Assembly: GCA_016209105.1 (NCBI GenBank) | Contig: JACQWR010000011.1 | Location: forward strand, 132,216 to 196,215 | Direction of reading: 5' to 3' | DNA length: 64,000 bases | Origin: Deltaproteobacteria bacterium | Lineage (GTDB): Bacteria > Desulfobacterota > Syntrophia > Syntrophales > JACQWR01 | Program-made: the position numbers and the translations under genes | Part shown: positions 9,719-53,034 of the stretch, in pieces | Numbering within the stretch: the first letter of the stretch is position 1 | Layout of the letters: every line of letters starts with the position of its first letter | The notes under the pieces: model-generated | Databases searched by the model: none | The model's input: only the letters and a program-made list of their open reading frames with translations | Told to the model about the DNA's origin: nothing

Positions 9719-9843
9719 GCAGGCTGCTCAAAAAGCCCAGATGCAAGGCCCCCGAAATACTTCGCCATGAGGCGTACTGTTGCGTACGTCGAATGGCGAA
9801 GGATGAGGGAAACGCCGCAGATGGGCATTTTTCAGCAGCCTGC
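9719..9843. repeat. Intergenic repeat family B (MITE/REP-like, terminal inverted repeats)
   Basis: Ends gcaggctgctcaaaaa ... tttttcagcagcctgc are inverted, with an internal palindrome cttcgccatgaggcgtac..gtacgtcgaatggcgaag. Homologous copies lie at 43638..43884 and 62268..62393. Confidence 0.7.
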
Positions 9844-11027
9844 TAATCATTTCTCTCCAGGACCATGACGCCCGCCATCGCGGCGGGTCCGCCCAGGCAA
9901 TGGGCAAGCCCCCGGCGCGCGTTCTTCACCTGCCGCTTGCCCGCCTTCTCCTGAAGCTGCTGCGTCACTTCGTACACCATGCGGATACCCGAAGCGCCCA
10001 GCGGATGACCAAAGGCCTTTAAGCCGCCATCGGTGTTTACCGGCAGCTCCCCTCCCAAGGAGGTCACCCCCTCCTCGATCAGCTTCCATCCCTGGCCCTT
10101 CGGGGCAAACCCCAGGTCTTCATAGTTCAGTATCTCCGTAATCGTAAAACAGTCATGACACTCCGCCATGTCGATCTCCCGGCGGGGGTCCTTCACGCCC
10201 GCCTGTTCATACGCCATCCGGGCGGCCGTCTGGGTTACCTTGAAATTGAGAAAATCAAAGCCCGGCTCAAAAATGTTGCGTTCCGTCCCCACCGCAAACC
10301 CGATGCCCGCCACCTTGACGAAGTCGGGATTGAAGTTCTTCGCCATATCGGCGCGGGTAACGATTGCCGCCGCGGCCCCGTCGCAGCTTGCCGTGGAATC
10401 CAGCACGGAAAGCGGTTCTGCAACCCAGGGCGACTTGAGCACGTCTTTCAGGGTGATTTCCCGCTGCATGTTGGCCTTCGGGCTCAGGGTGCCGTGGTGG
10501 TGATTCTTTACCGCCACCTTGGCCAGCGTTTCCCGGCCGATGCCGTATTCATGGAAATACCGATGGGCGCAGCTGGCAAAAAAACTGGGGGCCGTTCGTC
10601 CCTTGCCGATCAGGGGATGGCCGTCGGTACGGTTGGCGAGCATTAGGCTCCGGGAGCCGGCATCGCGCATCTTCTCCACGCCCACAGCCAGGGCAACATC
10701 ATACATGCCGGAAGACACGGCCAGGCAGGCATTCCTGAGGGCATCAATGCCCGTCGCGCAGATATTGGAAATCAGCGTCACCGGCTTGTAGAGGAAACCC
10801 AGCGCCTCGGCCAGAGGGCTGCCGATGTTCCGTTCTCCCGCAATCCAGGGACGATACGATCCCAGCCATGCCGCTTCCACCTCTTTGTGCAGCTCCACGC
10901 CCGCATCGGCGCAGGCCTCAAAGGTAGCATCCACCACGAGGTCGCCCCAGCTTTTGGTGAAATGCTCGCCGAATTTGGTACAGCCCACACCGATAATGGC
11001 AACCGGTTCTTTCATTACACCCGACAT
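9843..11027 (-). CDS. Thiolase-superfamily protein, SCP-x / archaeal acetoacetyl-CoA thiolase / BbsB type
   Basis: Nucleophile context SNICATG. C-terminal GHPLGASG and CLGGP motifs. Confidence 0.85.
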   Translation of the reverse strand: MSGVMKEPVAIIGVGCTKFGEHFTKSWGDLVVDATFEACADAGVELHKEVEAAWLGSYRPWIAGERNIGSPLAEALGFLYKPVTLISNICATGIDALRNACLAVSSGMYDVALAVGVEKMRDAGSRSLMLANRTDGHPLIGKGRTAPSFFASCAHRYFHEYGIGRETLAKVAVKNHHHGTLSPKANMQREITLKDVLKSPWVAEPLSVLDSTASCDGAAAAIVTRADMAKNFNPDFVKVAGIGFAVGTERNIFEPGFDFLNFKVTQTAARMAYEQAGVKDPRREIDMAECHDCFTITEILNYEDLGFAPKGQGWKLIEEGVTSLGGELPVNTDGGLKAFGHPLGASGIRMVYEVTQQLQEKAGKRQVKNARRGLAHCLGGPAAMAGVMVLERND

Positions 11028-11031
11028 ATTC

Positions 11032-12510
11032 CTACCTCCCTATGGCCGGTCTCGCCTTCCAGAAATAATTAGGCAGCTCCTGCCCGTCATGCAGCTTGCG
11101 GAAGCTGAGCTCCACATCCAGGCCGATACGCATATCCTGGGGATTCACATCAGTCACCTGGCAGAAGATGCGCCCGCCCCCTTCCAGATCAACGGCTGCC
11201 AGAGACTCCGGGGGGTCGGGATTGAGATACAGGTAATCATTCGTATAGGTATACACCCTCCCGCGGCGACTGAGCTTAAAATCTTCCATCTGGTCTTTCG
11301 CGCCGCAATGGTGGCAGACCCGGCGACGGGGGAAGGCAAGGGTGCCGCAGGCGGTGCATTTGACCCCGGTAAGCTTCATATTTTGCTTCTCCTCCCGCCA
11401 CAGCAGGGCCATGGAGGTAAAGGCATCGTAGGAACTCTCGCCGATCACATCGCGGAAGTTCAGATATTTCGCATAGCTGGTTAGTGGCCGCTGCCGCTTC
11501 AGGAATTCCGGGACGCCGCGGCAACCTTCCGCCTTGCCGATATTCTCGGTCACCCGAAGCAAGAACGCCTCGGCGCCGTCTCCGTACCCCGCGACAATCA
11601 GCCGCTCTCCCGGTTTTGCCTTGGCGAGCACTGCCGCGAGGCTCAAGAACACCTGCGCATTGCCGGTATCTCCGATGCTTTTCAGGAGGCCATCGGCCAG
11701 TTGCGTCTCCGGATTGAAACCGGCCTTGCGGGCAAGACGGACCGCCAGACGGGCATTGGGAGCATAGACAATCAGTTTGGCCACATCGCCCGCCGCGATT
11801 CCCGCCTTCTTAAGCAGCCCTTTCAACGCCTCATTCATGAGCGGGATATAGCCGTAATCCTCGACAAACCGCGCATCCGTCGTCTGCACGTAGGGATCCT
11901 GTTCGCGCCGCCAGAAGTGGGGAAAATTGGCATTCACGACAACGTGCGCTTCCACACCGGCCAGGACATTTTCCCGTCCCACAAGCACCGCCGCCGCCCC
12001 GTCCCCGAATGCCTGCTCCTCACCGGAAGCGGGGGCAGCCATCCGACGGTCGCTGGCCACGACCAGGGCCGCATCGGCAGGCGAGCCTTCCTTGAGGGCG
12101 CCAACCGCCATGCCGAGAGCCGTCATGCCGCCCCTGAGACTGCCGTTTATGTCCGTCACCAGCGCCGACCGATTCATATCCAAAACGGCAGCCAAAACGC
12201 TGGACGCGTGCTTTTCCCGATAGGGGGAACTGGCGCTGGCAAAAAAAAGGGCCGCCAAGTTCGTCGCGGCAAACGGAATGCCGAACGAGCGCGCATAATT
12301 ATCCGCACATTCCCAGCAAGCATCCACGCCCATCGTCAGGGCGTCCTCGTCGTACTGGGCCACCGCCCTCCCGCCGCCGGACGCCCGCGCCCCCGTTGCC
12401 TGGGCAATGACCTCACGGGACAGGCGATATGCCGGCACATAAACCCCGAAAGCTGAGATTCCTACCACGTTCTTCACCTCACGTTGCTGTTGATAATCCC
12501 TTGTTGACAC
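11032..12510 (-). CDS. Fusion of an HMG-CoA-synthase/KAS-III-like domain (apparently degenerate active site) with a C-terminal DUF35 zinc-ribbon/OB-fold domain
   Basis: The N-terminal ~350 aa look HMGCS-like. The C-terminus has CTACGTLAFPRRRVCHHCG (rubredoxin-like ribbon) plus an OB fold typical of DUF35. It sits next to a thiolase, as in thiolase/HMGCS/DUF35 and BbsAB-type complexes. Confidence 0.75.
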   Translation of the reverse strand: MSTRDYQQQREVKNVVGISAFGVYVPAYRLSREVIAQATGARASGGGRAVAQYDEDALTMGVDACWECADNYARSFGIPFAATNLAALFFASASSPYREKHASSVLAAVLDMNRSALVTDINGSLRGGMTALGMAVGALKEGSPADAALVVASDRRMAAPASGEEQAFGDGAAAVLVGRENVLAGVEAHVVVNANFPHFWRREQDPYVQTTDARFVEDYGYIPLMNEALKGLLKKAGIAAGDVAKLIVYAPNARLAVRLARKAGFNPETQLADGLLKSIGDTGNAQVFLSLAAVLAKAKPGERLIVAGYGDGAEAFLLRVTENIGKAEGCRGVPEFLKRQRPLTSYAKYLNFRDVIGESSYDAFTSMALLWREEKQNMKLTGVKCTACGTLAFPRRRVCHHCGAKDQMEDFKLSRRGRVYTYTNDYLYLNPDPPESLAAVDLEGGGRIFCQVTDVNPQDMRIGLDVELSFRKLHDGQELPNYFWKARPAIGR

Positions 12511-13872
12511 TCACCCTGCCGCTTTAAACGGTCCTCTCGCCAGCATGGCGTTGACATCCTCCGCCCTCATGGCGTAACGGAGCAGAAACTCCTCATCGTC
12601 CATATCGGCGCCGGCCCCGATTTGCCTGCGCAGTTCCGCAATGGACGGCTGGGGAAATTCCTCTGCCATCATTTTCTTCACCTTGGGAACGCTCGTTATC
12701 TTATCCAGGATCGTGGGATCAATCGGCACCGGGGAAGGGCCGAAGTATCCGGCGACATATTCCATAACGCCGCTCGATATCACTTTATACCGCTCCCCGG
12801 ACATGACGTTCATCGTTGCCTGGCTTCCCACCATTTGCGAAAGGGGCGTCACCATGATGGGCCAGCCCAGTTCCTTGCGCACCCGGATGATCTCTTCCAT
12901 GACTTCCGGCAGACGATCCTCCATCTTCCCCTCTTTCAACTGGCGCTTCATGGTGCTTACCATCCCTCCGGGCAGCTGATGCTCGTAAATGGAGATGTCA
13001 TACTCGAACGGCACGCCCCGCGGCTTGCCCGTTTTTGCCGCCACCTCCTCCAGATAGGAAGCCATCGCGGCAAGCGCCTCGGCATTAATCTTGGCCGTAT
13101 ATCCCATATATTTAATGTTGTTCAGGATGTTATATATGGAGGGCTGGGCGGTGCCGTTGGCCACCGGCGGCACACCGGTGTGGACGATGTGGACGCCCAT
13201 GCGAATGGCCTCAAGATAGACGAGCGGCGCCAAGCCGGTATTGCAGTGGGAATGGATTTCCAGTGTCTTGCCGTTCAGGTGGGCCTGCACCGCCGGAACC
13301 AGCGTCTTGATCCGCTCCGGCGTCAGAAGACCTCCCTGATCCTTGATGTATACCGTATTCACGTCGGGATCATGGGTCAGCTCCCCGGTAAGGCGGCCGA
13401 AAAATTCATCGGTATGGACGGGACTGAGCGAAAAGGAGAGGGCGATAACCGTTTCTTCGATGCCGACTGCCTTGCACATGTGCGCCACCTTGAGCAGCGA
13501 TGAAACCTCATGGGCGGCGTCCAGTATCCATACCCGTCTGATGCCGTTGGCCTTCATACGCTTAATCACCAGTGCGAGGATGGAATCGGGCGTCCGCTTG
13601 AATCCGATGAAGCGCCGGCTCGTCGTCCCAAAGCTCAAGGGGGTGTCCGGCATGGCTTGCACGGCCAGGCGCACCCGCTCCCAAGGATTTTCCCGGTGGT
13701 AGCGGACAGCGGTATCCATACCGGAATTGCTGATAAAATCCACCGCCCGGAACCCCACCTTGTTCACCTGGGGGGCAATGGCCAGAACATCGCCCGTGGT
13801 GATTCCCGTGGCATCCCAGAGCGACTGGTTTCCGTCTCTGAGACTGGTGTCAATGAACTGTATTTCTTGCAT
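12511..13872 (-). CDS. Carboxyltransferase of the pyruvate carboxyltransferase / oxaloacetate decarboxylase alpha / transcarboxylase 5S type, without a biotinyl domain
   Basis: IQFIDTSLRDGNQS, YIKDQGGLL (carbamyl-Lys context) and EIHSHCNTG (HxH). Preferred start is ATG at 13872, preceded by AAGGAGAAAACT; the ORF track start is 13893. Confidence 0.85.
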   Translation of the reverse strand: MQEIQFIDTSLRDGNQSLWDATGITTGDVLAIAPQVNKVGFRAVDFISNSGMDTAVRYHRENPWERVRLAVQAMPDTPLSFGTTSRRFIGFKRTPDSILALVIKRMKANGIRRVWILDAAHEVSSLLKVAHMCKAVGIEETVIALSFSLSPVHTDEFFGRLTGELTHDPDVNTVYIKDQGGLLTPERIKTLVPAVQAHLNGKTLEIHSHCNTGLAPLVYLEAIRMGVHIVHTGVPPVANGTAQPSIYNILNNIKYMGYTAKINAEALAAMASYLEEVAAKTGKPRGVPFEYDISIYEHQLPGGMVSTMKRQLKEGKMEDRLPEVMEEIIRVRKELGWPIMVTPLSQMVGSQATMNVMSGERYKVISSGVMEYVAGYFGPSPVPIDPTILDKITSVPKVKKMMAEEFPQPSIAELRRQIGAGADMDDEEFLLRYAMRAEDVNAMLARGPFKAAG

Positions 13873-14090
13873 AGTTTTCTCCTTGGCGACCAACGTGGAT
13901 GAAAGAAAGGCGGGAACGATACGTGCTTACCCCCTGTGCAAGCGCGTCCTCAATATGCATTGGTAAGCACAACACTCGATTGTTTTAGCTACCACACTTT
14001 GCCAAATCAGGCAAATCCGTTTTAACGGGGAAAACGGAGAAGCTGTCTCCCCGGTGGTCTTCACCGGAAGCTTTCGGAAGGCATTTAGTA

Positions 14091-14469: not shown

Positions 14470-15882
14470 TCAGAAATTGGATGTCTTGATACGCTTATAG
14501 AGGGTAGCAAGGGAAATTCCCAGCGCCTCTGCCGCCGCTCGCTTCCCCTTCAGCGTGGTTCCATAAACGGATAGGGCCCGTTGAATCAAGAGGCGCTCCT
14601 GTTCGGTTAAAGACATTATGCCCTGTTCCCTTCCGTCGTCTGCGGGAAAGGCTTTTTTCGCACGCTCCTTTGCCATCATTCCGCCGGGAGGAACTTCCGG
14701 CAACAGCAGGACCTCCGCCGGAATACGCACCGTATCCACCAGATTGGCGGCCCGCTCAAGGACATTTTCCAACTCCCGGATATTGCCCGGCCAGCGGTAG
14801 GCAAGCAGTTTTTTCATCGCCCCCGGCTCTATCCCCGCCAGTTGCTTCCCCAACTCACGATTGAGCCGCTTGAGAATGTGTTTTGTAAGAAGGGGGATAT
14901 CCTGCATCCGCTCGCGCAAGGACGGTATGGCAATATCCACCACATTCACCCGATAGTACAATTCCTCACGGAAAAGGCCTTCCCGAACCATCCGGGGCAA
15001 ATCCCGGTTCGTTGCCACAATGACCCGCACATCCACCTGTACCGGTTGCCAGCCGCCCAGACGCGTCACCCCGCCATCTTCCAGCACCCGGAGCAGCTTG
15101 CTCTGGAGGGAAAGACTCATGTCGCCGATCTCATCCAGAAAAATCGTCCCGCCGTCGGCGCGCTCGAAGAGGCCCATCTTGCGCGCCACGGCGCCGGTAA
15201 ACGCCCCTTTTTCATGGCCAAAAAACTCGTTCTCCAGCAAATTTTCGGGAATGGCGGCGCAGTTGATCTTCAGGAACGGCTGTCCGGCCCTGGGCCCGGC
15301 ATTGTGCATGGCATGGGCAAACAGCTCTTTTCCCGTACCGCTTTCGCCCGTAAGGAGCACCGTGGAAGCGCCGGCAGCAGCCTTCCTCGCTATTTCCAAC
15401 ACCTTCCGCAATTTCGATGAAGTGCCGATGATATTATCGAAAGAATATCGGGCGCCGCACAGACCGGCAAGCTTCTCCGTCAACGACTCTACGAGAAGAT
15501 TTCTCTGCGACAATTTTCTGGTGAGTTCCAGAACATCGGAAATGTCCTGGCAGAAGGAAACCCCTCCCCTGATTCTTCGCTCCACGATCAGGGGGGAGGC
15601 ATTCACGATCAGCTCTGCTTTCGAGCCTTCCGGCTGATACCGGTAACCGTAGACCGGCTTGCCGGTGCCGATTGCCTGGCGGAGCGGCCCAAAGGGGGGC
15701 TCCGGCTTGAGCAGCCGGCTTATTTCCTTTTTGGCATTCCGGCCGGTCATCTTTACATAAGCCGGGTTTACATAACAGACCATGCAGCCGGCATCCGCAA
15801 TCATGATGCCTTCCAGGGCGCAATCAAGAATGGCCAGGATCTCCGGCGTCAGGCTCTTCAGACTGTTCTTCAGAAGGGACAC
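14470..15882 (-). CDS. sigma54-dependent transcriptional activator (PAS sensor + AAA+ + Fis-type HTH)
   Basis: GESGTGKE Walker A, GAFTGA loop (EKGAFTGA) and a C-terminal HTH (AAEALGISLATLYKRIK). Confidence 0.9.
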   Translation of the reverse strand: MSLLKNSLKSLTPEILAILDCALEGIMIADAGCMVCYVNPAYVKMTGRNAKKEISRLLKPEPPFGPLRQAIGTGKPVYGYRYQPEGSKAELIVNASPLIVERRIRGGVSFCQDISDVLELTRKLSQRNLLVESLTEKLAGLCGARYSFDNIIGTSSKLRKVLEIARKAAAGASTVLLTGESGTGKELFAHAMHNAGPRAGQPFLKINCAAIPENLLENEFFGHEKGAFTGAVARKMGLFERADGGTIFLDEIGDMSLSLQSKLLRVLEDGGVTRLGGWQPVQVDVRVIVATNRDLPRMVREGLFREELYYRVNVVDIAIPSLRERMQDIPLLTKHILKRLNRELGKQLAGIEPGAMKKLLAYRWPGNIRELENVLERAANLVDTVRIPAEVLLLPEVPPGGMMAKERAKKAFPADDGREQGIMSLTEQERLLIQRALSVYGTTLKGKRAAAEALGISLATLYKRIKTSNF

Positions 15883-15930: not shown

Positions 15931-17046
15931 TCAGGAAAGCGGCGGCAGGTCGGCTTTTTCGACCTCGTACACCGATTCCATCTTGGGCGTAAGGCCGCGC
16001 TTCGCCAGCTCCGCGGCAAAGGTCTCCCGGATGAAGGCATCCTCATCGGCGTAATCAATCTGGGCTCCGCCAAGGCGCCTGCTGATCCAGCACAGCGGCA
16101 CCCCCTGCTCATTGCGGGCCGATACCCCCGCGAACTTGAACGCCAGATAGCTCGCCGGCGTGGTGCCGGTATTGAAGTGCTGATGGTACCATCCCTCGGG
16201 CGGCACGATCAGGCTGCCCTCTTTCCAATCGTAACGGTTGGGCTTGCCGCCTTCCGGCCACATGAGGCTGTATCCTTCCCCGTTCAAGACCATGACGTGG
16301 GCGCCGGGCCCGTGGGCATGCGCCTTTTTATACGTTGCGACGGGGAACTGGGAGATATGGCTGGGCAGAGACCCCTTGGCCAGGTTGAACCGGATATGGC
16401 CGCCGCCGCCGCCCCGTTCCTTGGTGAACACCAGGGGCAGATTGACGGCATCGGCAACAAAGTTTGTTTCCAGAAGCAGCCCCTTCTGTTCACCCTTTTT
16501 GCTGAAATAGTCCCGTTCGCCGGCGAAACGCTTCGGGAAATCGCGGGCGGTATTGAAGACGAAATCCACGTCATCGTAGAGATTCATCACCTGGGGGGCG
16601 TTCGTCACGCCCACATAGCGGGCCGCCGACTTTCCGGAAACGTTGAAATGCTGGTGCCAGGCATTGAGCGGTATGGCAAACAGCGCCCCCGCCTTCCACT
16701 CGAAGGTCACGCGCTGGCCCGCATCGTTCCATACGGATGTGGACCCGCGCCCGTCCAGGATATAGACCAGCTCTTCAAAGAGCTGCCGCTGCGGTTCGAG
16801 CTGCTTGCCCGCCGGGATCTCACAGATATAGCAGTCATTGGAATAATTCGACGCCTCGTGGTTGATGTAAACGCCGTAACCGCCGCGTCGGGCCCAGGGC
16901 TTCAGCCCCACCGTATGGAGATTCGGGATGTAGTGGCCGCTGATGATATCAAGCCCTTCCCCCCTGACCCAGGCCTTGTAAACGGAGTCTTTCTCCGTGG
17001 CGAATTTTTTTGCGAATTCTTCCGATACGACGATGTTATTTGCCAT
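15931..17046 (-). CDS. Bicupin protein, gentisate-1,2-dioxygenase-like fold family, function unknown
   Basis: Two cupin barrels, each ending in a W(H/Y)HQHFN motif. The C-terminal barrel has HAHGPGAH. Preferred start is ATG at 17046 (MANNIVV) behind GAGGGAGG. Paralog of 18925..20052. Confidence 0.75.
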   Translation of the reverse strand: MANNIVVSEEFAKKFATEKDSVYKAWVRGEGLDIISGHYIPNLHTVGLKPWARRGGYGVYINHEASNYSNDCYICEIPAGKQLEPQRQLFEELVYILDGRGSTSVWNDAGQRVTFEWKAGALFAIPLNAWHQHFNVSGKSAARYVGVTNAPQVMNLYDDVDFVFNTARDFPKRFAGERDYFSKKGEQKGLLLETNFVADAVNLPLVFTKERGGGGGHIRFNLAKGSLPSHISQFPVATYKKAHAHGPGAHVMVLNGEGYSLMWPEGGKPNRYDWKEGSLIVPPEGWYHQHFNTGTTPASYLAFKFAGVSARNEQGVPLCWISRRLGGAQIDYADEDAFIRETFAAELAKRGLTPKMESVYEVEKADLPPLS

Positions 17047-17153
17047 AGAAACAGCCTCCCTCGCTTTCAATAAAGATCGCAGCGGCATCTGTCCTGCCGC
17101 ATACCCTTCCCGGCAGCAATCCCCTTTCTCCGTTATCGCCGGACTCAACCGCC

Positions 17154-18695
17154 CTATCTGAAAACCAGGGACTTGACGGTTACGGGCACTGTTTTTGAAG
17201 GTTCCAGCCTGCGGCCGATATCAATAAAATCGAAGTCTTGCAGAATAATGCCGTCAATAACGAGGAGCTCGCTTCTCACGTCTTGGTCTTCGCTCAAGAG
17301 CGCCCCGACGGTCTGCGCCACGTCACCGTCAAATATGATGAAGAGCGGCTTGCCCTGCCGGATCGTCTCGGACAAGCCCCGCTTCAGACCCTCTACAAAA
17401 GCATGTATCCGCGCAAAGGACGGCAGTCCGTGCCAGCGGAACACCAGGGCCACTTCCGCCTCGCCCTCAACGAGATCAAACATGGCAAAGTGATTCCGGA
17501 TGGACTGGGCCACTTTTTCGGGATTGATAGCCTCTTGCAGCTCATTGGAAGGATGCAACACCTGCAGATTCTTCCGGGGGAGCAGGGAAGACCCGGAGAG
17601 GTAAATGGTGTTGCCGCTCACCTGCAGGCTGTAAGACGATGCGCCGATTACCGTGGCCCTGATGCACTCCCCCGCCGGCAAGAGCGGCCAGGGAACGCTG
17701 TCCTCCCTCATCTTTCTGCGCAAAGCGTGCCCCAGCAGTTTTCCCAGGTCGCCGAAATCGCGCGCTTCCCGGTCATAGACGTACTCGCCGACGCCGCCCG
17801 AAAACATGACGCCGGCGATATGTTCCAGATTTTCGAGCGGCGGCGTAAGGAAGAGTTTTTCAATCTCCGCCGGCAGGGGACGCACCGTAACAGCGGTCAG
17901 AATCGCTTGCGCCATCCAGGCCGTGAGACGCTGCATGTCCTCAGGGCTCACCCTGTCACCCAGTTGCCAGTTTAAACCGATCTGACCGGCGAGGTGCTTT
18001 CCGCCGGGATCGAGCCGCACGATGCGCCGCTCTTCATCAATCACCAGGAGGCGTCCGCCGATGTAAACCGCGGCTGTCTCCAGCACCCGCCCGTTTTCCA
18101 CCACCGCCAGTTTCGTGGTGCCGCCGCCGACGTCTATATTCAGGATACGCTCGCCCCTCTCATAGGACGACAAGGCCGCTCCGGATCCATACGCCGCGAG
18201 CAGCGCTTCCATGTTGTGGCCTGCCGCGGCGCACACGAATTCTCCTCCCTGCACCGCCAGAATATCCGCAATGGCCCTCGCGTTATGCCTGCGGATCGCC
18301 TCTCCTGTGAGAATTACCACACCCGTGTCAATGTCCTCCGGCCGCAATCCCGACAAGCGGTAGGCATCGGCAATGATTTTCCCCACCATCTTATCGTCTA
18401 TGCGCTCCTCATCCAGGTAGGGCGTCAGGGAAACAGGCGAATAGTAGAGCGGTTCCCGCGAAATCACCATGTAGCGGCTCGACAGATCTTCCCCCATGCG
18501 TCTTAACTTCAGAAGCGAAAAGGTTACCTGAGTCCCGGCAGAGCCGATGTCAATGCCCACGCTTTTAAGCGCAATATTGTCCATAATCCAAAGGGCGTTG
18601 TCCTCAAGTTTGCCGATCGGTTCGTCATCGTGGTCGTGGTCTATGCCGTGAATGTTGTAGCGGCCGGAGCCGTGATCGTGGAGAATATCATGCAT
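17154..18695 (-). CDS. EutA-family ASKHA ATPase (ethanolamine ammonia-lyase reactivase-like) with a His/Asp-rich N-terminal tail
   Basis: Collinear with EutA by recall: SVGIDIGSAGTQV, ILTGEA, LNIDVGGGTTK, FSGGVGEY, RATVIGASSYSLQVSG, and a C-terminal PVTVKSLVF. The N-terminus MHDILHDHGSGRYNIHGIDHDHDDE carries 6 His. Confidence 0.8.
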   Translation of the reverse strand: MHDILHDHGSGRYNIHGIDHDHDDEPIGKLEDNALWIMDNIALKSVGIDIGSAGTQVTFSLLKLRRMGEDLSSRYMVISREPLYYSPVSLTPYLDEERIDDKMVGKIIADAYRLSGLRPEDIDTGVVILTGEAIRRHNARAIADILAVQGGEFVCAAAGHNMEALLAAYGSGAALSSYERGERILNIDVGGGTTKLAVVENGRVLETAAVYIGGRLLVIDEERRIVRLDPGGKHLAGQIGLNWQLGDRVSPEDMQRLTAWMAQAILTAVTVRPLPAEIEKLFLTPPLENLEHIAGVMFSGGVGEYVYDREARDFGDLGKLLGHALRRKMREDSVPWPLLPAGECIRATVIGASSYSLQVSGNTIYLSGSSLLPRKNLQVLHPSNELQEAINPEKVAQSIRNHFAMFDLVEGEAEVALVFRWHGLPSFARIHAFVEGLKRGLSETIRQGKPLFIIFDGDVAQTVGALLSEDQDVRSELLVIDGIILQDFDFIDIGRRLEPSKTVPVTVKSLVFR

Positions 18696-18747
18696 GGGGA
18701 GTAAACTCTTTCGTTAAAAAAGTGGTTAGGGGATACCCGAACGCGAC

Positions 18748-18780
18748 AACATCTCACGGGTATCAAGCCCGTGAGATGTT
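18748..18780. other. Perfect 13-bp-stem hairpin in the bicupin/eutA-like intergenic region
   Basis: aacatctcacggg tatcaag cccgtgagatgtt. No U-tract on either strand, so it is probably not a simple terminator. Confidence 0.4.
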
Positions 18781-18813
18781 GGAAAAGCTATCACGCACGG
18801 CAAGCAGTGCCGT

Positions 18814-18927
18814 TTAAAGCTCCCCTTGAGCACGCTGCAAAGAATCTTTGGTTCTTAAGAAACACCATCAGCATTCGCTCGCTTACCCCGCGGCTTGCCG
18901 CGGGGAATGCGCTCGCTGCCGAATTCA
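18814..18927. repeat. Intergenic repeat family A, full-length copy
   Basis: ...attcgctcgcttaccccgcggcttgccgcggggaatgcgctcgctgccgaattca. Abuts the stop codon of bicupin 2. Confidence 0.75.
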
Positions 18928-20052
18928 GGCAGTTTTGCCCGGCAGAGGCGGCAGATCGGCCAGTTCCTGCTCATAGGATTTTTCCATCTCCGGCTTCATG
19001 CCGCGCTTCTGCAATTCTTCCACAAAAAGCTTTCTGATGGAGGGATCCTCGTCGGCATAATCAATTTGATCGCCGCCGATCCGCTTGCTGATCCATGCCT
19101 TCGGAACGCCCTGGGCGTTGCGGATGGATACTACCTCATGCTTAAAGGCCATGTAACGGCCGGGGGTAGTCCCCGTATTGAAATGCTGGTGGTACCACAT
19201 GTTCGGCGGAACTATCATGCTGCCTTCCTGCCAGTCGTATTTCCGCGGGGCATCGCCTTCGGGCCACATCAGGCTGTACCCCTCGCCGCTTAAGATAATG
19301 ACGTGGGCGCCTGGTCCGTGGGCGTGCCCCTTCTTGTACGTTTTGACCGGAAACTGGGAAATATGGCTGTTCATGGACCCCTTTGCCAGACTGAACCGGA
19401 TATGGCCGCCGCCGGCCCCGCGCTCCTTGGCGCTGATGAGCTGGAGATTGACGGCATCGGCGACGAAGTTGGTATCGAGCAGAAGCCCCTTCTGCTCTCC
19501 CTTCTTGCTGAAATAGTCCGGCTCGCCGGAAAAACGACTGGTAAAATCAAAAGACGTGTTGAAAACGAATTCGGGGGACTCGTAGAGGTTTATTACCGGA
19601 GGACCGTTCGTCACCGCCACATAGCGCGCCGGTTCCTTTCCCGAACCGTTGAAATGCTGGTGCCAGGCATTGAGCGGTATGGCAAACAGCGCCCCCGCCT
19701 TCCACTCGAAGGTCACGCGATTGCCCTTATCGTTCCATACGGACGTGGAACCCCGCCCATCCAGAACGTAGATCATCTCCTCGAACAGCTGCCGCTGGGG
19801 CTCCAGCTGTTTGCCTGCCGGAATCTCGCAGACGTAGCAGTCGTTGGACGTTCTTGAGGCCTCATGATTAATGTAAACCCCCAAGCCGCCGCGCCTGCGC
19901 CAGGGCTTCACTTCCACCGTATGCAGATTAGGGATGTAGTGGGCGCTGATAATGTCCAACCCCTCTTTTTTGATCCATGCGTCATAGGGGGTGTCTTTTT
20001 CCGATGCAAACTTTTCTGCAAACTCCTTGGGCACTAGTGCATCTTTTGCCAT
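18925..20052 (-). CDS. Bicupin protein, paralog of 15931..17046
   Basis: Same architecture and motifs. Preferred start is ATG at 20052 (MAKDALV) behind AGGAGAGAAG. Shares a 72-bp stretch of 100 percent identical DNA with its paralog. Confidence 0.75.
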   Translation of the reverse strand: MAKDALVPKEFAEKFASEKDTPYDAWIKKEGLDIISAHYIPNLHTVEVKPWRRRGGLGVYINHEASRTSNDCYVCEIPAGKQLEPQRQLFEEMIYVLDGRGSTSVWNDKGNRVTFEWKAGALFAIPLNAWHQHFNGSGKEPARYVAVTNGPPVINLYESPEFVFNTSFDFTSRFSGEPDYFSKKGEQKGLLLDTNFVADAVNLQLISAKERGAGGGHIRFSLAKGSMNSHISQFPVKTYKKGHAHGPGAHVIILSGEGYSLMWPEGDAPRKYDWQEGSMIVPPNMWYHQHFNTGTTPGRYMAFKHEVVSIRNAQGVPKAWISKRIGGDQIDYADEDPSIRKLFVEELQKRGMKPEMEKSYEQELADLPPLPGKTA

Positions 20053-20296
20053 GTTACTTCTCTCCTTTCTGTTATGCACCACGAAGGGGGCTAACGGGTT
20101 TTACGGTATAGATACGCGGGGTTTCCTCTGCTATTTCCGATCGAGTATGGACATGTCTGCCATTTACTGTCAAGCTCTTTTTTATGCGCCCTCCCTTCCG
20201 TGACGAAACAGGACATCAAGAAGACGCACCGTGAAGCTCCCCGCACACAGGGCGGGGCGTGCAGGTGCGCCCCCGGTCAGAGGCCGAGGCGCAATA

Positions 20297-21046
20297 TCAT
20301 TCTTTACCGTTTGTGAAACGGGCAATGATCCCCTGGCAGAAACGGTCAATTTCGTTCCGATCGGGAAGATCAAGAACGGATGGGTTGACGATCTGCCGGT
20401 GGGCGAGAGATGCGAAGGCGGGAATAACGGCCGCACAGGGAGGCAGTCCGGCTATCTCAGGGAGGGTGAACTCATCCGGGGCGCGGTTGATAACGAGCGC
20501 CTGCCGGGAGAGTCCCATATCCTTTGCGAGGGAACTTATCGTGGCGGCCGTCCGCAGGCTTCTCAGGCTCGGTTCGCTGACCACGATCAGACCGTCTACG
20601 GACTGCACCGTCCCCCGCCCCAGATGTTCCACGCCGGCCTCAAGGTCAACGATGACCCACTGCCCGCCTGCAATGATCAGGTGGGCAAGCAAGGCCTTGA
20701 GCAGGGCGTTGGCGGAACAGGCACAGCCGCCGCCTGCGGCGGCGATGCTCCCCATGACGAGCAGCCTCAGATTACCGACCTTCCTGGCGAGCCGCTCCGG
20801 CAGATCTTTTACCTCCGGATTAAGACGGATAAAGCCTTCGCCCACCCGCTCCCGGATAAGCTCCGTATTCTTTACCAGGGGAACGGGGATATCTTCTTCC
20901 GGCAAGCCGAGTGCCTGGCCCAAAGACAGCGCGGTATCCGCATCTACCAGCCATACATCCTCTCCCCGGCGGGCGAGATAATCTCCCAGCCAGGCCGTGA
21001 CGGACGTCTTTCCCACTCCGCCTTTCCCTGCTACCGCAAGCTTCAT
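20297..21046 (-). CDS. CooC/AcsF-like P-loop NTPase (MinD/ParA superfamily) with a CxC motif
   Basis: Deviant Walker A AGKGGVGKTS. GGGCACSANALL resembles the metal-bridging CxC motif of CooC-type Ni-insertion ATPases. Preferred start is MKLAVAGKGG at 21046. Confidence 0.7.
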   Translation of the reverse strand: MKLAVAGKGGVGKTSVTAWLGDYLARRGEDVWLVDADTALSLGQALGLPEEDIPVPLVKNTELIRERVGEGFIRLNPEVKDLPERLARKVGNLRLLVMGSIAAAGGGCACSANALLKALLAHLIIAGGQWVIVDLEAGVEHLGRGTVQSVDGLIVVSEPSLRSLRTAATISSLAKDMGLSRQALVINRAPDEFTLPEIAGLPPCAAVIPAFASLAHRQIVNPSVLDLPDRNEIDRFCQGIIARFTNGKE

Positions 21047-21140
21047 AGGACAAAGTCTTCCCGATGCCTTAAAAAAGCGGGGGACGGGCACTCGACCCAC
21101 CCCCCTCTTATTACTATAACGTTCCTACGCAGGAATTCGC

Positions 21141-21356
21141 TTATTCAAGAACAAGCAGCACCTGTTCGGAATCCACCTTAGCATCCTTCGCAACTTTGAT
21201 TTCTTTTACGACCCCGTCGGCCGGCGCGTAAATGGGATTTTCCATCTTCATCGCTTCGAGGATTACCAGTTCATCGTCTTCACTGACCTTGTCGCCGACT
21301 TTTACCAGTACGTCCATTATTTTCCCCGGCATCGGGGCCACGACATCTATACTCAT
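21141..21356 (-). CDS. Minimal biotin carboxyl-carrier protein (biotinyl domain only, ~71 aa)
   Basis: The EAMKM biotinylation motif sits in a lipoyl/biotinyl hammerhead sequence. Preferred start is ATG at 21356 behind GGAGGTAAGG. Confidence 0.85.
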   Translation of the reverse strand: MSIDVVAPMPGKIMDVLVKVGDKVSEDDELVILEAMKMENPIYAPADGVVKEIKVAKDAKVDSEQVLLVLE

Positions 21357-21418
21357 TTTCCTTACCTCCATTTTGATTGTAGGATGACACCCGCCCCCCA
21401 TGCAGCAGCAGACGTCAA

Positions 21419-21527
21419 TTGAAGCTCTCCGCAGCGCGCTGCGGAGAAGCTTCGATTCTTAAGGAACATTATCGTTCACCATTCGGTCGCTTACCCCGCG
21501 GCAAGCCACGGGGAATGCGTTCCCGAC
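21419..21527. repeat. Intergenic repeat family A, full-length copy
   Basis: ttgaagctctccgcagcgcgctgcggagaagcttcgattcttaaggaac...cgcttaccccgcggcaagccacggggaatgcg. Confidence 0.75.
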
Positions 21528-21539
21528 AAATACCGCGCC

Positions 21540-23315
21540 TTATTCGGCTTCCTTGGAAGGACGCTCAAGCCCTTTCACGATCTGCGCCCTGATCAGCCGG
21601 GGAAGCATCATGTGATGCTGGGGGCAGATTGACCGCGGATTTTGATAAACGCCGTTGGCAAAGGCAACCATATAGTTTCGGATCGCCTCGTACCGCACCA
21701 CTTCATCCACAAAACCCGTTTTGGCGCAATAGAAGGGACGGGACTTGTCGTAGTATTCCTTGGCAAGCTCGTTCATCTTGTCAATGATGGGGCCGAGTGA
21801 CTTGCCGCCTTCCTTCTCTTTTACCAGTCTGCGGGAGAAACTGGCCGTGGAGGCTGTCTCTCCGTGCATGACGTAGATTTCCGTCGTCGCCGTGCCCAGG
21901 GTAAACGCCGTATGGTTGTTCGCCGTGGGGCCGCCCATGATGTAATGGGCCGCAGCCGTCCCCTTCCTGAGGACAACGAGCATCATGGGAACGTTGGTCT
22001 GCTCGATGGAATAGATGAGGGACTGGCCCAGTCCCAGCAGTTCCGCCTTTTCCGCAATATCTCCCACGTCTATGCCCGACGTATCCTGGAACCAGACGAT
22101 GGGCACGCGGTCGCGGCCGCACTGGGTCACGAACTCGTTCATCTTGATGAGGCCCTGACGGTAGAGCTTGCCGCCGATCCCCGTATATTTACTGGTGTAT
22201 TCCGGATAGTTTGCAAACATCCCCATGCGGTTGCCGATGGCGCCCAGGAGAAAGCCGTCCACCTTGACCAGGCCGGTGTAGACCTCAGGACCGAAGTCGG
22301 GGCGGAATTCCAGGTTTTCCGAATTGTCCACCAGGCGCGCCAGGATATTGTCGAAATCGTACCCGGCCTTCTGATTGAAGGAGATGATGGAAGAAATTTC
22401 CGTGGGCGGATACTTCGGTGCGGCGGGCTCGGCAACACGGAAGAACCGCGGATTGTAGGCCGGCATCTCCGCCATATATTGCTTGAGGGCATCAAGGACT
22501 TCCGTTTCCTTTTCAAAAACGGCCCGGAAAAATCCCGTATGGTTGTAATGAATTCCCACGCTGCCCGGCGGCACTTCCTTAAAATGCTTTGTGGCCTCGA
22601 TGATCTGTTCCGCCCCCTCCTCGTCAAAAAAACCTTTGGGGCTCATGCCGCTGACGATGCCGCCGCCGCCCACGGCAATGTTGGCGTCCTTGTGGGCCAG
22701 AAGAATGGTGGGACTGATGCCCTGATAGCCGCCGCCGGCGGGATTGGTTCCATAAATGCCGGCCAGGATGGGAATGCCCCGCTGTTCCAGTTCAGCGTGG
22801 CGGAAGAAGCAGGTGCCGTTGCCGCGGCGGTTGGCATAGACCTTTTCCTGTTCCGTCAGCTTCACTCCGGAACAGTTGACCAGCCACACAAGCGGCAGGT
22901 TCAGGATTTTTGCCATATCGGTTACCCGGAGATTGTTATCCGCCTGTCCGGCGATCCACGCCCCGGCCATGACCTTGTTGTCAAAACCGACAAGCACGCA
23001 CCACTTGCCGTTGATCCGTGCCAGGCCGTCAATGACGCCGGTCATCCCCTCTTCGTTATCGAGGGGGTTGTACAGGGTGTGCAGCGGACAGAAGGTACCC
23101 GCATCAACGAGATATTCAATCCTGTCCCACACCGTCATCTGACCGCGCTTGCGGACCGTCTCCGCCGGGATGCCGGCCTTCTTAACCCGATCAACCTCAG
23201 CCTCGATGCCTTTCAGCACTTCCTCGATCTGGGCTACGTTTTCCTTCATACGCGCAATCTGGGCAGGCTTCAGCGGCTTGCCCAGATCATCCATTTTTGC
23301 AAAATATTGTTTCAT
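21540..23315 (-). CDS. gcdA: Acyl-CoA carboxyltransferase of the glutaconyl-CoA decarboxylase alpha (GcdA) / transcarboxylase 12S type
   Basis: 591 aa. The length and N-terminal region resemble GcdA, and it has two crotonase-like carboxyltransferase halves. Adjacent to an acyl-CoA dehydrogenase and a biotin carrier. Confidence 0.8.
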   Translation of the reverse strand: MKQYFAKMDDLGKPLKPAQIARMKENVAQIEEVLKGIEAEVDRVKKAGIPAETVRKRGQMTVWDRIEYLVDAGTFCPLHTLYNPLDNEEGMTGVIDGLARINGKWCVLVGFDNKVMAGAWIAGQADNNLRVTDMAKILNLPLVWLVNCSGVKLTEQEKVYANRRGNGTCFFRHAELEQRGIPILAGIYGTNPAGGGYQGISPTILLAHKDANIAVGGGGIVSGMSPKGFFDEEGAEQIIEATKHFKEVPPGSVGIHYNHTGFFRAVFEKETEVLDALKQYMAEMPAYNPRFFRVAEPAAPKYPPTEISSIISFNQKAGYDFDNILARLVDNSENLEFRPDFGPEVYTGLVKVDGFLLGAIGNRMGMFANYPEYTSKYTGIGGKLYRQGLIKMNEFVTQCGRDRVPIVWFQDTSGIDVGDIAEKAELLGLGQSLIYSIEQTNVPMMLVVLRKGTAAAHYIMGGPTANNHTAFTLGTATTEIYVMHGETASTASFSRRLVKEKEGGKSLGPIIDKMNELAKEYYDKSRPFYCAKTGFVDEVVRYEAIRNYMVAFANGVYQNPRSICPQHHMMLPRLIRAQIVKGLERPSKEAE

Positions 23316-23369
23316 AAACTTCTTCCTCCAATCCGTTAACCGCTCCCCATTGTTAGGAACGGCAAGAAA

Positions 23370-23452
23370 TTATCAAGGAATGGTACCGCTTCGGCACCCG
23401 CTCGCTTGCCCCGCAGCAGAGTGCGGGAGAATACGCTCGCCGCCTGATTCAG
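23370..23452. repeat. Intergenic repeat family A, degenerate copy
   Basis: ...caaggaatggtaccgcttcggcacccgctcgcttgccccgcagcagagtgcgggagaatacgctcgccgcc... Confidence 0.5.
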
Positions 23453-23461
23453 CGGTTCTTC

Positions 23462-24613
23462 CTATTTCAGGCCAAGTTGCCCCCGGGCAATGATCCACTT
23501 GCAGATGTTGGCCGATCCCTCCACCATGGGATAGGTGGGGGCATCGCGGTAGTATCTCGCCACGGGATACTCGGTGGAGTACCCGTAAGCGCCCAGGATG
23601 CGCATCGCATACATGCTGCTCTTGACGGCTACTTCCCCGGCCAGATATTTTGCCTGAGCCACTTCCATGTTGTTGTCCAGCTTGCCCTGATCCCTCTGCC
23701 ATGCCGCCCGGTAAACGCACAGGCGCGCCGCTTCGATTTCACACGTCATCTGGGCAATCATGTCCTGGATCATCTGAAACTCGCCGATTGCCTTCCCGAA
23801 CTGTTCCCGCTCCTTCGCGTACTTGATGGAAGCATCCAGACAGGCCTGCGCCACACCAATGCCTCCGGCCGCGGCGGACAGACGCGTCCCGTTCAGGGAG
23901 CCGAAGACGATCTTTGCCCCATCGCCCGGTTTTCCCAGGATGTTCTCCTTGGGGACCTTCGTGTTATCCAGGTATATCTCGCCGGTCGGTGAAGAGCGGC
24001 TGCCCATCTTGTCGAGGTCCGTAGTGCGAACGCCGTTGGCATTCTTCAGTTCCACAACGAACGCGGAGAGTCCCTTGGCCTTCGCGGCGCGGTCCGTGTA
24101 CGCGTAGTAGATGATCACATCGGCGACATTAGCGTTGGAAATCCACGTCTTGGAACCGTTCAGTACCCAGTGATCCCCCTTGTCCTCGGCGGTGGACTTC
24201 ATGGACATGACGTCCGATCCCGCGTTGAATTCGGTGATGCCGAACCCGCCTACTAAGTCCGCGTTCACCAGTTTTTGAACGTACTTTTTCTTTGCCTCCG
24301 CGGTGCCGTATTTAAAGATTGTGTACGCGCAGCCCAGGCCTTGCATGTTTATCTGCACGCGGAGAGAACTGGAGCCGCGGGCAACTTCCTCGGTAAGGAT
24401 GATCGCCGCAAGCCAGCCCATCCCATTTCCGCCGAATTCCTCGGGAAGAAGCGTTCCGAAAAAACCCAGTTCCGCCATGGGTTTTACGGCTTCTTTATAG
24501 GGGAAATAGTGTTTTTCATCCCATTCATCTGCAAAGGGAGCTATCTTCTCCGCTGCAAAATCACGGGCCATGCCTCTCAACATCTCGAGTTCGTCAGATA
24601 GAGCAAAATCCAT
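23462..24613 (-). CDS. Acyl-CoA dehydrogenase. Context suggests a glutaryl-CoA dehydrogenase, possibly the non-decarboxylating type.
   Basis: Typical ACAD length and motifs (catalytic Glu in YPMVEGSANI). The specific assignment is inferred only from gcdA adjacency. Confidence 0.85.
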   Translation of the reverse strand: MDFALSDELEMLRGMARDFAAEKIAPFADEWDEKHYFPYKEAVKPMAELGFFGTLLPEEFGGNGMGWLAAIILTEEVARGSSSLRVQINMQGLGCAYTIFKYGTAEAKKKYVQKLVNADLVGGFGITEFNAGSDVMSMKSTAEDKGDHWVLNGSKTWISNANVADVIIYYAYTDRAAKAKGLSAFVVELKNANGVRTTDLDKMGSRSSPTGEIYLDNTKVPKENILGKPGDGAKIVFGSLNGTRLSAAAGGIGVAQACLDASIKYAKEREQFGKAIGEFQMIQDMIAQMTCEIEAARLCVYRAAWQRDQGKLDNNMEVAQAKYLAGEVAVKSSMYAMRILGAYGYSTEYPVARYYRDAPTYPMVEGSANICKWIIARGQLGLK

Positions 24614-28902: not shown

Positions 28903-28911
28903 TGTCTCCTC

Positions 28912-29832: not shown

Positions 29833-30053
29833 CACGGTCCTCTCCTCCTTCTTTGTAAAATACATAATAAAACATATCCGACGGCTCCATGCGTACCTAC
29901 TAAGGCGCTCGCCGGTGAAAGACAATAGGAATTAAATAGAAGAACACTGGTAGCTGAAATCTACCATTGACGCACTTGTTAACCTCGTCGTTCGCAGCCG
30001 ATAATTTGGCACTCCCGATTGGTTAACTCATGACTGCAAATCTAAGAAGGGAT

Positions 30054-41189: not shown

Positions 41190-41191
41190 TC

Positions 41192-41827: not shown

Positions 41828-41845
41828 TCCATACAGGAGGAAATC

Positions 41846-47287: not shown

Positions 47288-47393
47288 AACTCCCTCCTTC
47301 AATAATGCCGTTGTAGGTATGCTGCGGTTCAGAGATCGGGGAACACCGGAAAACAGGTAAAGAGGAAACAATCCCCCTGCCGTATTTCCGGAA

Positions 47394-51789: not shown

Positions 51790-51893
51790 TTCTCATTTCT
51801 CCCGAAGGGGATCAAAACAGCATACTCGTGAAGCTTTCCCCCGCTTGTTTTTGCAAGACGGAGGGCCGGCTATCCCTTAAGCAGGATCGCCAA

Positions 51894-52448: not shown

Positions 52449-52469
52449 AATAAACCTCCTTGCGGTAAA

Positions 52470-53009: not shown

Positions 53010-53034
53010 GGCAACCTCCTCTTGTTTAATTCGG

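Follow-up and report, generated by a model that had tools for sequence, protein, structure and literature searches.

A conserved bicupin/EutA-like gene unit as a candidate nickel-dependent cupin enzyme with an ASKHA-fold ATPase as putative metal-loading factor

Introduction

To our knowledge about ten nickel enzymes are known, each with its own maturation machinery. The combination of His-rich tails, linkage to nickel transporter or regulator genes and a nucleoside triphosphatase (NTPase) encoded beside the metalloenzyme is the signature of nickel maturation and is found in UreE/UreG, HypB and CooC/CooJ systems. EutA, which serves ethanolamine lyase, carries out an ATP-dependent cofactor exchange. 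Here we describe a locus related to both groups in a 64,000-nucleotide stretch (the window) of contig JACQWR010000011.1 from a Deltaproteobacteria bacterium. Its core is a three-gene unit encoding a bicupin (bicupin B), a EutA-like ATPase and a second bicupin (bicupin A).

The EutA-like protein shares with EutA (PF06277; E. coli b2451) its family, its full-length architecture and intact ASKHA ATP-binding motifs, and probably acts in a similar way, using ATP to alter the active-site content of a partner protein. It differs in that its clade carries His/Asp N-terminal tails, often poly-His C-terminal tails and invariant Cys155, His160 and Cys344 residues, in having a bicupin instead of EutBC as its partner, and in a genomic context of nickel genes instead of cobalamin or microcompartment genes. 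With UreG/UreE, HypB/HypA/SlyD, CooC/CooJ and AcsF the system has in common a His-rich tract and nucleotide hydrolysis beside genes for the target, a nickel transporter and NikR. These nickel insertion NTPases are SIMIBI-class P-loop proteins, whereas the EutA-like protein has an actin/Hsp70-like (ASKHA) fold, as judged from its sequence and a structural model.

By sequence, the cupins are nearest to the Fe2+-dependent, three-His gentisate and salicylate 1,2-dioxygenases, with which they share the bicupin fold, a W-H-x-H-x-N second motif and an aromatic-acid context. The similarity is however very low, and the module described here has a QxQ first barrel, a four-His second barrel, small-cupin partners, a dedicated ATPase, a nickel context and O2-independent pathway enzymes. 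Streptomyces quercetinase QueD, Ni-acireductone dioxygenase (Ni-ARD) and DddK show that the His-rich site of a cupin can use Ni2+ catalytically, but these are single-barrel proteins with three His and one Glu that lack a maturation ATPase or nickel-transporter linkage, and QueD and ARD use O2. The Mn enzymes MncA and oxalate decarboxylase OxdC are the best structural matches of the bicupin model (Foldseek E ~1e-15, TM 0.47-0.50) and differ from it in their low identity (11-14%), in a Mn site of three His plus Glu in both barrels and in having no accessory ATPase.

Because other genomes place the module beside nickel uptake and sensing genes, it probably encodes a nickel enzyme with an ATP-driven Ni-loading factor. 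We put the probability of a Ni-dependent multi-cupin enzyme that receives its metal, for the first time or again, from the EutA-like ASKHA ATPase at about 0.55-0.6. We also lean, at slightly better than even odds, towards a system in which bicupin B, the EutA-like protein and bicupin A together with two small cupins encoded elsewhere in the window form a nickel-dependent multi-cupin enzyme of an aromatic (poly)carboxylic acid pathway. A metalloenzyme with a dedicated NTPase chaperone is a known concept; the chaperone fold, the target enzyme and the importer fusion reported below are new. No description of the bicupin/EutA-like pairing was found in Pfam, NCBIfam (June 2026), the PDB or a searchable literature of 8 million full texts (subscription-only articles being outside its scope). 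The 'EutA' of ectoine papers is a different protein.

The bicupin/EutA-like pair is conserved at loci that carry no ethanolamine lyase genes

All three core genes lie on the minus strand of the window. Bicupin B (18925-20052, longest open reading frame (ORF) to 20082; 375 residues from MAKDALV; Pfam Cupin_2/Cupin_1) is followed by the EutA-like ASKHA ATPase (17154-18695; 513 residues; Pfam EutA) and bicupin A (15931-17046, longest ORF to 17148; 371 residues from MANNIVV). The true start of bicupin A is likely MANNIVV at 17046, as called on an identical contig. Genes in the window and in high-GC loci were called using a codon-position GC filter combined with tblastn, and domain searches of the window covered the listed ORFs of the 64 kb, with some small ORFs outside the scan. 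An earlier sequence-only reading of the window had described four consecutive minus-strand genes, these three and a CooC-like gene, and all four ORFs were found in place.

To compare loci, 89 sequences were fetched and analyzed together with the window (90 in total), of which a full-flank set of 43 has at least 8 kb on each side. Linkage was scored when a EutA-like gene at least 50% identical to that of the window lay no more than 10 kb from the bicupin gene. This was the case in 37 of the 43 full-flank loci (86%), with a gap of less than 1.2 kb in 16. When loci were retrieved via the EutA-like protein, a bicupin of 370-380 residues adjoined it in every context. The bicupin/EutA-like/bicupin order is kept in five loci (L003, L004, L087, L088 and L089), and the closest relatives of the window, with EutA-like proteins of 69-76% identity, retain exactly this order. 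Two of the six exceptions hold a distant second pair made up of a bicupin of ~408 residues (~32% identical) and a EutA-like protein (~42% identical), and this pair is also present in Limnohabitans, Methylocella, Beijerinckiaceae and on a Phyllobacterium plasmid. As the distant pair shows the same adjacency, the pairing is conserved at two divergence depths. A search of a plasmid collection returned distant paralogues only.

The second pair (L081 16793-19541; L045 4013-7137; L061 3499-6336; L094 8914-11716, the Phyllobacterium plasmid) often shares a genome with the first, and its EutA-like proteins are mostly without His tails. Its neighbours include TctABC, a thiamine diphosphate (ThDP) enzyme of the same family as that of the window, a 3-hydroxyisobutyrate-dehydrogenase-like reductase and a class II aldolase.

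Neither the window nor the 89 other loci gave a tblastn match to E. coli EutB or EutC. At the level of these loci, EutA-like and bicupin genes thus co-occur without eutBC, a pattern that the sequence-only reading had proposed to look for across genomes. Its statement that the window holds no eutBC, other adenosylcobalamin (AdoCbl) enzyme, microcompartment or carbon monoxide dehydrogenase (CODH) genes agrees with our tblastn searches and domain scans, in which some small ORFs were not included. That reading had also listed signs that would speak against a link between the two genes, namely a consistently co-encoded AdoCbl enzyme, scattered occurrence and unconserved tails; given the co-occurrence, the conserved tails and the absence of eutBC at the loci, none of these was seen for the EutA-like/bicupin pair. 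Its broader proposal of a metallo-cupin with a dedicated NTPase factor, unlinked to ethanolamine lyase, is backed by the co-occurrence, the tails and the nickel context.

The EutA-like ATPase represents a separate clade with His-rich tails

The EutA-like protein matches the Pfam EutA profile with 404.5 bits over positions 3-474 of 475 and its end-to-end alignment with E. coli EutA shows 33% identity, confirming the proposed collinearity. It falls below all four NCBIfam EutA cut-offs (NF007991-NF007994), the best score being 337.9 bits against 598 and the other three models giving 197-249 bits against 769-952. E. coli EutA starts at residue 38 of the window protein and therefore lacks the His/Asp tail, which comprises residues 1-37 and contains DHDHD followed by LEDNALW; the N-terminus MHDILHDHGSGRYNIHGIDHDHDDE given in the sequence-only reading is present. 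This tail had been pointed out from the sequence alone and is a feature of the clade. Among 7,851 database clusters found at E<=1e-10, the best 120 homologues, from which tails were counted, are 59-99% identical to the window protein and come from Delta-, Alpha-, Beta- and Gammaproteobacteria and Firmicutes. At least four His residues precede the first ASKHA motif in 115 of these 120, and 108 tails contain a DHxH-type motif followed by a conserved L-E-D/E-N-x-L-W. A His-rich C-terminal tail with up to 36 His in 71 residues is present in 71 of 96 alignable homologues. This poly-His tail is found in most aerobic homologues; the window protein carries the N-terminal tail only and E. coli EutA neither.

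The phosphate-1, phosphate-2 and adenosine motifs for ATP binding are invariant in the clade. C155, H160 and C344 are invariant or nearly so (39-40 of 40 sequences) and correspond to Val, Pro and Thr in E. coli EutA. An AlphaFold model shows an ASKHA fold (pLDDT 78) with a disordered tail, and the protein has no P-loop NTPase fold of the G3E or MinD type. A fold search with the model returned Ppx/GppA, MreB and PilM as top matches, representing generic ASKHA proteins only, while a PDB sequence search yielded nothing informative.

Homologues are labelled 'EutA' in databases. Together with the full-length Pfam match, this label would suit an ordinary EutA whose target, an ethanolamine lyase or some other AdoCbl enzyme, is encoded elsewhere, with the cupins as unrelated neighbours. 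We consider the probability of this almost negligible, as the protein is under every NCBIfam EutA cut-off, is only 33% identical to EutA compared to 53-83% within its own clade, adjoins a bicupin at two levels of divergence and is accompanied by eutB or eutC in none of the 90 sequences. Judged from its sequence, the EutA-like protein thus belongs to the EutA family but is not EutA, the ethanolamine-lyase reactivase.

Nickel uptake and sensing genes accompany the unit in other genomes

Genes for NikR, NicO or HupE/UreJ are found within 10 kb in 14 of the 43 full-flank loci. In Limnohabitans sp. 15K, nicO lies 23 nt 3' of the EutA-like gene and is adjoined by a NikR gene (Pfam NikR_C, 1e-27), and the NikR-NicO-EutA-like order recurs in other Betaproteobacteria loci. 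The EutA-like unit of Betaproteobacteria also includes an IclR regulator and a BenC-type reductase in addition to the NicO-family Ni/Co transporter. In four Alphaproteobacteria a HupE/UreJ gene is located between the bicupin and EutA-like genes; it is directly 5' of the bicupin gene in three further ones, and in L002 it lies 3 kb away from the EutA-like gene. The divergent hupE/eutA-like region of the four Alphaproteobacteria contains a conserved dyad, GTA(T/A)GA-N16-GCATA(C/G/A), with a NikR-operator-like 6-N16-6 spacing. The AT-rich box reads GTA(T/A)GA-N7-(A/G)ATGAATAAGTGCATA, followed by ATGCTAAGGCAAGC in three of the four (L018 11831, L027 12106, L043 11948, L075 7613). The strongest pointer to nickel comes from three independent Betaproteobacteria metagenome-assembled genomes (MAGs), in which a single ORF fuses the EutA-like protein through a poly-His linker of 70-100 residues to a two-domain ABC permease (L033 5206-8802; L048 60-3056; L060 2509-6051), the permease being that of the adjacent ABC transporter.

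The BenC-type Fer2/FAD/NAD reductase (L081 4233-5297, with equivalents in L062-L085) shares an operon with the EutA-like gene and nicO.

Two other roles of the ATPase are to be weighed against this context. The EutA-like protein could be a true reactivase that uses ATP to clear a self-inactivating enzyme of a dead-end product or of a metal that is damaged, oxidised or wrong, in which case the adjacent reductase may aid re-reduction by analogy to RACo-type activators. Full-length homology to EutA, whose own role is an ATP-dependent exchange, fits this role, as does the presence of reductase, EutA-like and NicO genes in one operon in Betaproteobacteria, and the clade-specific invariant C155, H160 and C344 could make up a transfer site. 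We nevertheless regard it as unlikely, since the poly-His tails and the fusion to an importer permease are explained no better by it than by nickel delivery, although the two roles are compatible.

Alternatively, the EutA-like protein could be a catalytic, ATP-using subunit that phosphorylates the substrate or bicarbonate, for example in a hydroquinone to gentisate carboxylase, with the cupins as its metal partner. ASKHA ATPase subunits do so in acetone and acetophenone carboxylases, the window genes are located among carboxyltransferase, CoA-ligase and UbiD genes, and genes for 4-hydroxybenzoyl-CoA-reductase-like molybdenum (Mo) enzymes are found directly 5' in relatives. However, a kinase would have no need for poly-His tails, linkage to NikR and NicO or an ABC permease fusion, and many genomes place the EutA-like gene kilobases from the cupin genes in a transporter/regulator operon, making this role improbable.

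Bicupins and small cupins possess distinct and conserved ligand sets

Bicupins A and B are 75% identical and contain the same set of motifs. Bicupin B is 100% identical to a 'cupin domain-containing protein' at NCBI from a Deltaproteobacteria MAG, 77-91% identical to the database clusters listed (6,781 clusters in all) and 75-84% identical to its relatives across the best 80 genome loci from other lineages. A scan of one genome per species gave at least 588 confirmed relatives, and some metagenome clusters have 500-1,300 member sequences. Barrel 1 contains Q86-x-Q88...E92 and H131-Q-H133 (F-N), whereas barrel 2 contains H243-x-H245-(x)4-H250 and H288-Q-H290-F-N, representing a four-His site. 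In 31 bicupin sequences H243, H245, H250 and H288 as well as Q88, E92 and H131 are invariant and Q86 is nearly so. Both proteins show the motifs named in the sequence-only reading, barrel 1 having PQRQLFEE and barrel 2 HAHGPGAH and HQHFN. Its remark that the HxH ligands of barrel 1 are replaced is borne out by QxQ; in addition, barrel 1 keeps an HQHFN motif (NAWHQHFN).

Pfam coverage of the bicupins consists of generic cupin domains only. An AF2 model shows two beta-barrels in a bicupin fold (pLDDT 77), and Foldseek aligns it with MncA, oxalate decarboxylase and gentisate dioxygenase at TM 0.45-0.50 and 11-16% identity, with an E of 4e-13 for the gentisate 1,2-dioxygenase structure 3bu7. The earlier label 'gentisate-dioxygenase-like' is therefore apt as a distant likeness of fold (TM ~0.47) and fails as sequence membership. 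The only curated family matched, NF049978 5-aminosalicylate dioxygenase, gives 33-35 bits against a cut-off of 650, and phmmer of the bicupin against the PDB retrieved no gentisate dioxygenase and nothing useful. The three-His Fe2+ site of gentisate 1,2-dioxygenase is absent from the N-terminal barrel, which has Q86-R-Q88...E92 instead.

A second part of the module, missed in the sequence-only reading, is located 31 kb from the core unit. It consists of small cupins alpha (52470-53009, minus; 179 residues; HGH...VHQHFN) and beta (51894-52448, minus; 184 residues; HRH..E...THQHFN). Small cupins of ~180-200 residues, usually paired and each with a canonical HxH...E site and the HQHFN motif, are encoded beside the bicupin in 39 loci, and small cupin alpha is 45-58% identical to those in other loci. 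The closest solved relative of small cupin beta is gentisate 1,2-dioxygenase 3bu7 (E=1e-8). Directly 5' of the small cupins lies a split ArsP_1-family permease encoded by two overlapping ORFs (53035-54110, minus; Pfam ArsP_1), and the same split form occurs in seven other module loci. A homologue shows a weak NCBIfam match to the SO_0444 Cu/Zn efflux family, making the permease a possible metal transporter and a tentative member of the module.

Pathway neighbours suggest O2-independent chemistry on aromatic carboxylic acids

Near the small cupin genes, all on the minus strand, are genes for a UbiD-family decarboxylase (54392-55855), a PhtC-like class II aldolase-fold protein (55906-56607) whose best named match, 3,4-dihydroxyphthalate decarboxylase, is sub-threshold, a TctB/TctA transporter (49241-51270) and a PRK08327-like ThDP enzyme (45506-47371). 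UbiD is found near the module in 8 of the 43 full-flank loci and a class II aldolase in 9; TctABC and UbiD/VdcC-like and PhtC-like decarboxylases recur beside the module in other loci. The same ThDP family adjoins the module in L002 and the paralogous bicupin/EutA-like pair in L094. Glyoxylate carboligase was rejected as an identity for the ThDP neighbour (49-55 bits against a cut-off of 791). From these neighbours we infer catabolism of aromatic (poly)carboxylic acids as the pathway theme.

In aerobes the set often includes a Rieske oxygenase that closely resembles isophthalate dioxygenase (PDB 9INA, E=7e-147; PMC12445078). The closest relatives of the window have in its place a Mo hydroxylase of the xanthine-dehydrogenase type or an AFOR-type enzyme. 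Since the core persists where partners that need O2 give way to ones that do not, the core reaction would be O2-independent.

Dipicolinate catabolism (the dip cluster), considered because the Rieske neighbour resembles isophthalate dioxygenase, was dropped: its regulator DipR is of the GntR type as opposed to the IclR-type regulators at these loci, and the dip paper mentions neither EutA nor nickel. A 171-residue protein without a Pfam or NCBIfam match is always encoded directly 3' of the isophthalate-dioxygenase-like Rieske gene, in 13 of the 43 full-flank loci (L061 17417-17932, L045 17006-17533 and 11 further loci).

The same Ni-linked module could instead contain O2-dependent cupins, either gentisate/salicylate-type dioxygenases that cleave the ring or a cupin oxygenase fed by a reductase, used in this organism only under micro-oxic conditions. 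Among solved structures, those of gentisate and salicylate 1,2-dioxygenases are closest to the small cupins, the HxH of the second motif is common to both (WHEHCN versus WHQHFN), and Rieske dioxygenases and BenC-type reductases are frequent near the module. Ni-ARD is a nickel-dependent cupin dioxygenase. So is quercetinase (PMC4416304). Against this, the similarity is weak (E 1e-6 to 1e-11; 33 bits against 650 in NCBIfam), barrel 1 has Q-x-Q...E where gentisate dioxygenase has its three-His site, and 75-84% identity holds between aerobes and genomes with Mo hydroxylase or AFOR partners and an anaerobic glutaryl-CoA lower pathway. We judge O2-dependent cupins to be somewhat unlikely, if the most serious of the alternatives.

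The CooC-like gene appears to lie outside the module

The gene adjoining bicupin B (20297-21046, minus) encodes a CooC-type ATPase with a MinD-type deviant Walker A motif. Its best solved relative is CooC1 (3kje, E=1.3e-35), and its GGGCACS motif aligns with GSQCYC of CooC1. The CxC motif noted earlier is conserved in 120 of 120 homologues, and the sequence identifies a genuine CooC-family protein. The sequence-only reading had assigned it, next to the EutA-like protein, as a second maturation factor of the cupin enzyme in a four-gene system. In its favour, the genes are neighbours in this stretch, CooC inserts nickel and has a conserved CxC, and no clear terminator was found between the CooC gene and bicupin B. 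The CooC-like gene is however absent from all 89 other loci with a relative of the module. A 70%-identical homologue adjoins cooS/cooF in Desulfolutivibrio, and other homologues are found in unrelated contexts or after a glutaryl-CoA dehydrogenase (acd), carboxyltransferase (gcdA) and biotin carrier (BCCP) gene set. In relatives of 86% and 75% identity the gene comes after acd-gcdA-BCCP, as in the window; in the latter an HflX-like GTPase gene and no bicupin follows, while the contig of the former ends just past the gene. In addition, the 244-nt gap between the CooC gene and bicupin B holds a sigma-70-like promoter candidate (20144-20173, minus; TTGACA-18-CATACT, a consensus match only) that scores highest (10/12) over 13.8-25 kb. 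The absence elsewhere, the cooS/cooF homologue, the acd-gcdA-BCCP synteny and the promoter-like site place CooC outside the module, and the bicupin unit appears simply to be placed beside the CooC gene. A four-gene system is thereby largely refuted by synteny and is in our view highly improbable.

In the window and two relatives a CooC-type ATPase follows acd-gcdA-BCCP, a surprising association to find conserved for a cluster of biotin enzyme genes.

Proposed function of the multi-cupin system

We propose a mechanism that builds on what was observed: the genes are linked, their context in other genomes includes nickel genes, the His tails and the ligand sets are conserved, and the ATPase motifs are intact. 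The His/Asp-rich tail of the EutA-like ATPase would collect Ni2+, supplied in other genomes by NicO, HupE/UreJ or an ABC importer. ATP binding and hydrolysis by the EutA-like protein would drive opening of the cupin and insertion or re-insertion of the metal, presumably nickel, with transfer running from the ATPase to the cupin. The likeliest target would be the four-His site of the C-terminal bicupin barrel. Such a step would be analogous to the cofactor swap by EutA in its lyase and to nickel loading by UreG, HypB and CooC. Cupin-bound Ni2+ could then act as a Lewis acid on a substrate held by a carboxylate and a neighbouring hydroxyl or oxo group in an O2-free decarboxylation, isomerisation or C-C cleavage. 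We propose Lewis-acid, O2-independent chemistry on a substrate chelated in this way only tentatively. Equally speculative is the most complete version, in which two bicupins and two small cupins form a hetero-oligomer that acts without O2 on aromatic polycarboxylates or hydroxy-carboxylates and is matured by the first ASKHA-fold nickel insertase, fed directly by a membrane importer.

Several points weigh against a nickel enzyme loaded by the EutA-like ATPase. Nickel genes lie within 10 kb in only 14 of the 43 loci, and the window has none except the unrelated CooC gene. Cobalt could be the metal instead, because NicO and HupE carry both Ni and Co. A scan of all loci for GTATGA-N16-TCATAC with up to two mismatches found 11 NikR-like boxes compared to ~59 expected under a uniform base model, so that the total is not above chance; the hupE/eutA-like box is for this reason only suggestive, its conserved position alone arguing for NikR. 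All nickel insertases that we know of are P-loop NTPases or LarC, and we know of no ASKHA protein in that role. The nearest characterised relatives of the cupins are O2-dependent gentisate and salicylate dioxygenases. Finally, Betaproteobacteria lacking any Rieske gene within 10 kb carry a BenC-type reductase gene in the operon of the EutA-like gene, which hints at redox or oxygenase chemistry.

If true, the proposal would add a new nickel enzyme and also a new metallochaperone class, represented by an ATPase whose fold is not known to take part in metal insertion. Thousands of proteins labelled 'EutA' or 'cupin domain-containing protein' would be re-annotated, and a nickel need in aromatic carboxylic acid breakdown would be indicated for soils, fresh water and anoxic sediments. 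Cultured carriers of the system include Limnohabitans sp. 15K, Methylocella sp. CPCC 101449, Massilia sp. TWR1-2-2, Aromatoleum toluclasticum and Paenibacillus thalictri.

Other features of the window

All neighbouring genes given here are on the minus strand unless stated otherwise. A PAS/sigma-54 activator (14470-15882) adjoins bicupin A. The sequence-only reading had placed the four genes downstream of this activator; on the transcribed strand the activator (15882->14470) is in fact 3' of them. No sigma-54 promoter was found 5' of the bicupins, and matches within the bicupin genes are codons for WHQHFN. The only good -24/-12 site in the neighbourhood (TGGCATGCATATTGCT, 14106-14091, minus) precedes an operon for a 5S-type carboxyltransferase (12511-13893), an HMG-CoA-synthase-like/DUF35 fusion (11032-12510) and a thiolase (9843-11027). 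This operon, behind its near-consensus element, is likely the target of the activator.

The fusion, with zinc-ribbon and OB parts in DUF35, adjoins a thiolase of the SCP-x type (9843-12510), an arrangement recalling the archaeal thiolase/HMG-CoA synthase/DUF35 complex but here in a bacterial aromatic/glutaryl-CoA context. Further along are genes for a CoA ligase (6718-8295), a first UbiD decarboxylase (5141-6571) and an isochorismatase-family protein (4409-5137).

On the other side of the CooC gene are those for a biotin carrier (21141-21401), a GcdA-like carboxyltransferase of the 12S type (21540-23315) and the glutaryl-CoA dehydrogenase Acd (23462-24613; NCBIfam 734 bits), a few kilobases from the 5S-type carboxyltransferase, which has no biotin domain. 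The biotin carrier is a free protein, and no membrane Gcd subunit was seen near these genes (window 12511-13893 and 21141-24613; L095 and L097). These would be the components of a transcarboxylase that is soluble, not of a sodium pump.

Long plus-strand antisense ORFs at 20231-21181 (316 residues) and 51828-53114 (428 residues) cover the CooC gene and the small-cupin genes, respectively, and are chosen by longest-ORF callers, masking the true genes. The window also encodes an MtrB/PioB-type outer-membrane porin with an adjacent multihaem cytochrome (26737-29925), a ResB/CcsA cytochrome c assembly pair (31611-33848) and c7-type cytochromes with a cytochrome b (40134-42607). The porin and cytochrome gene sets suggest a lifestyle involving extracellular electron transfer.

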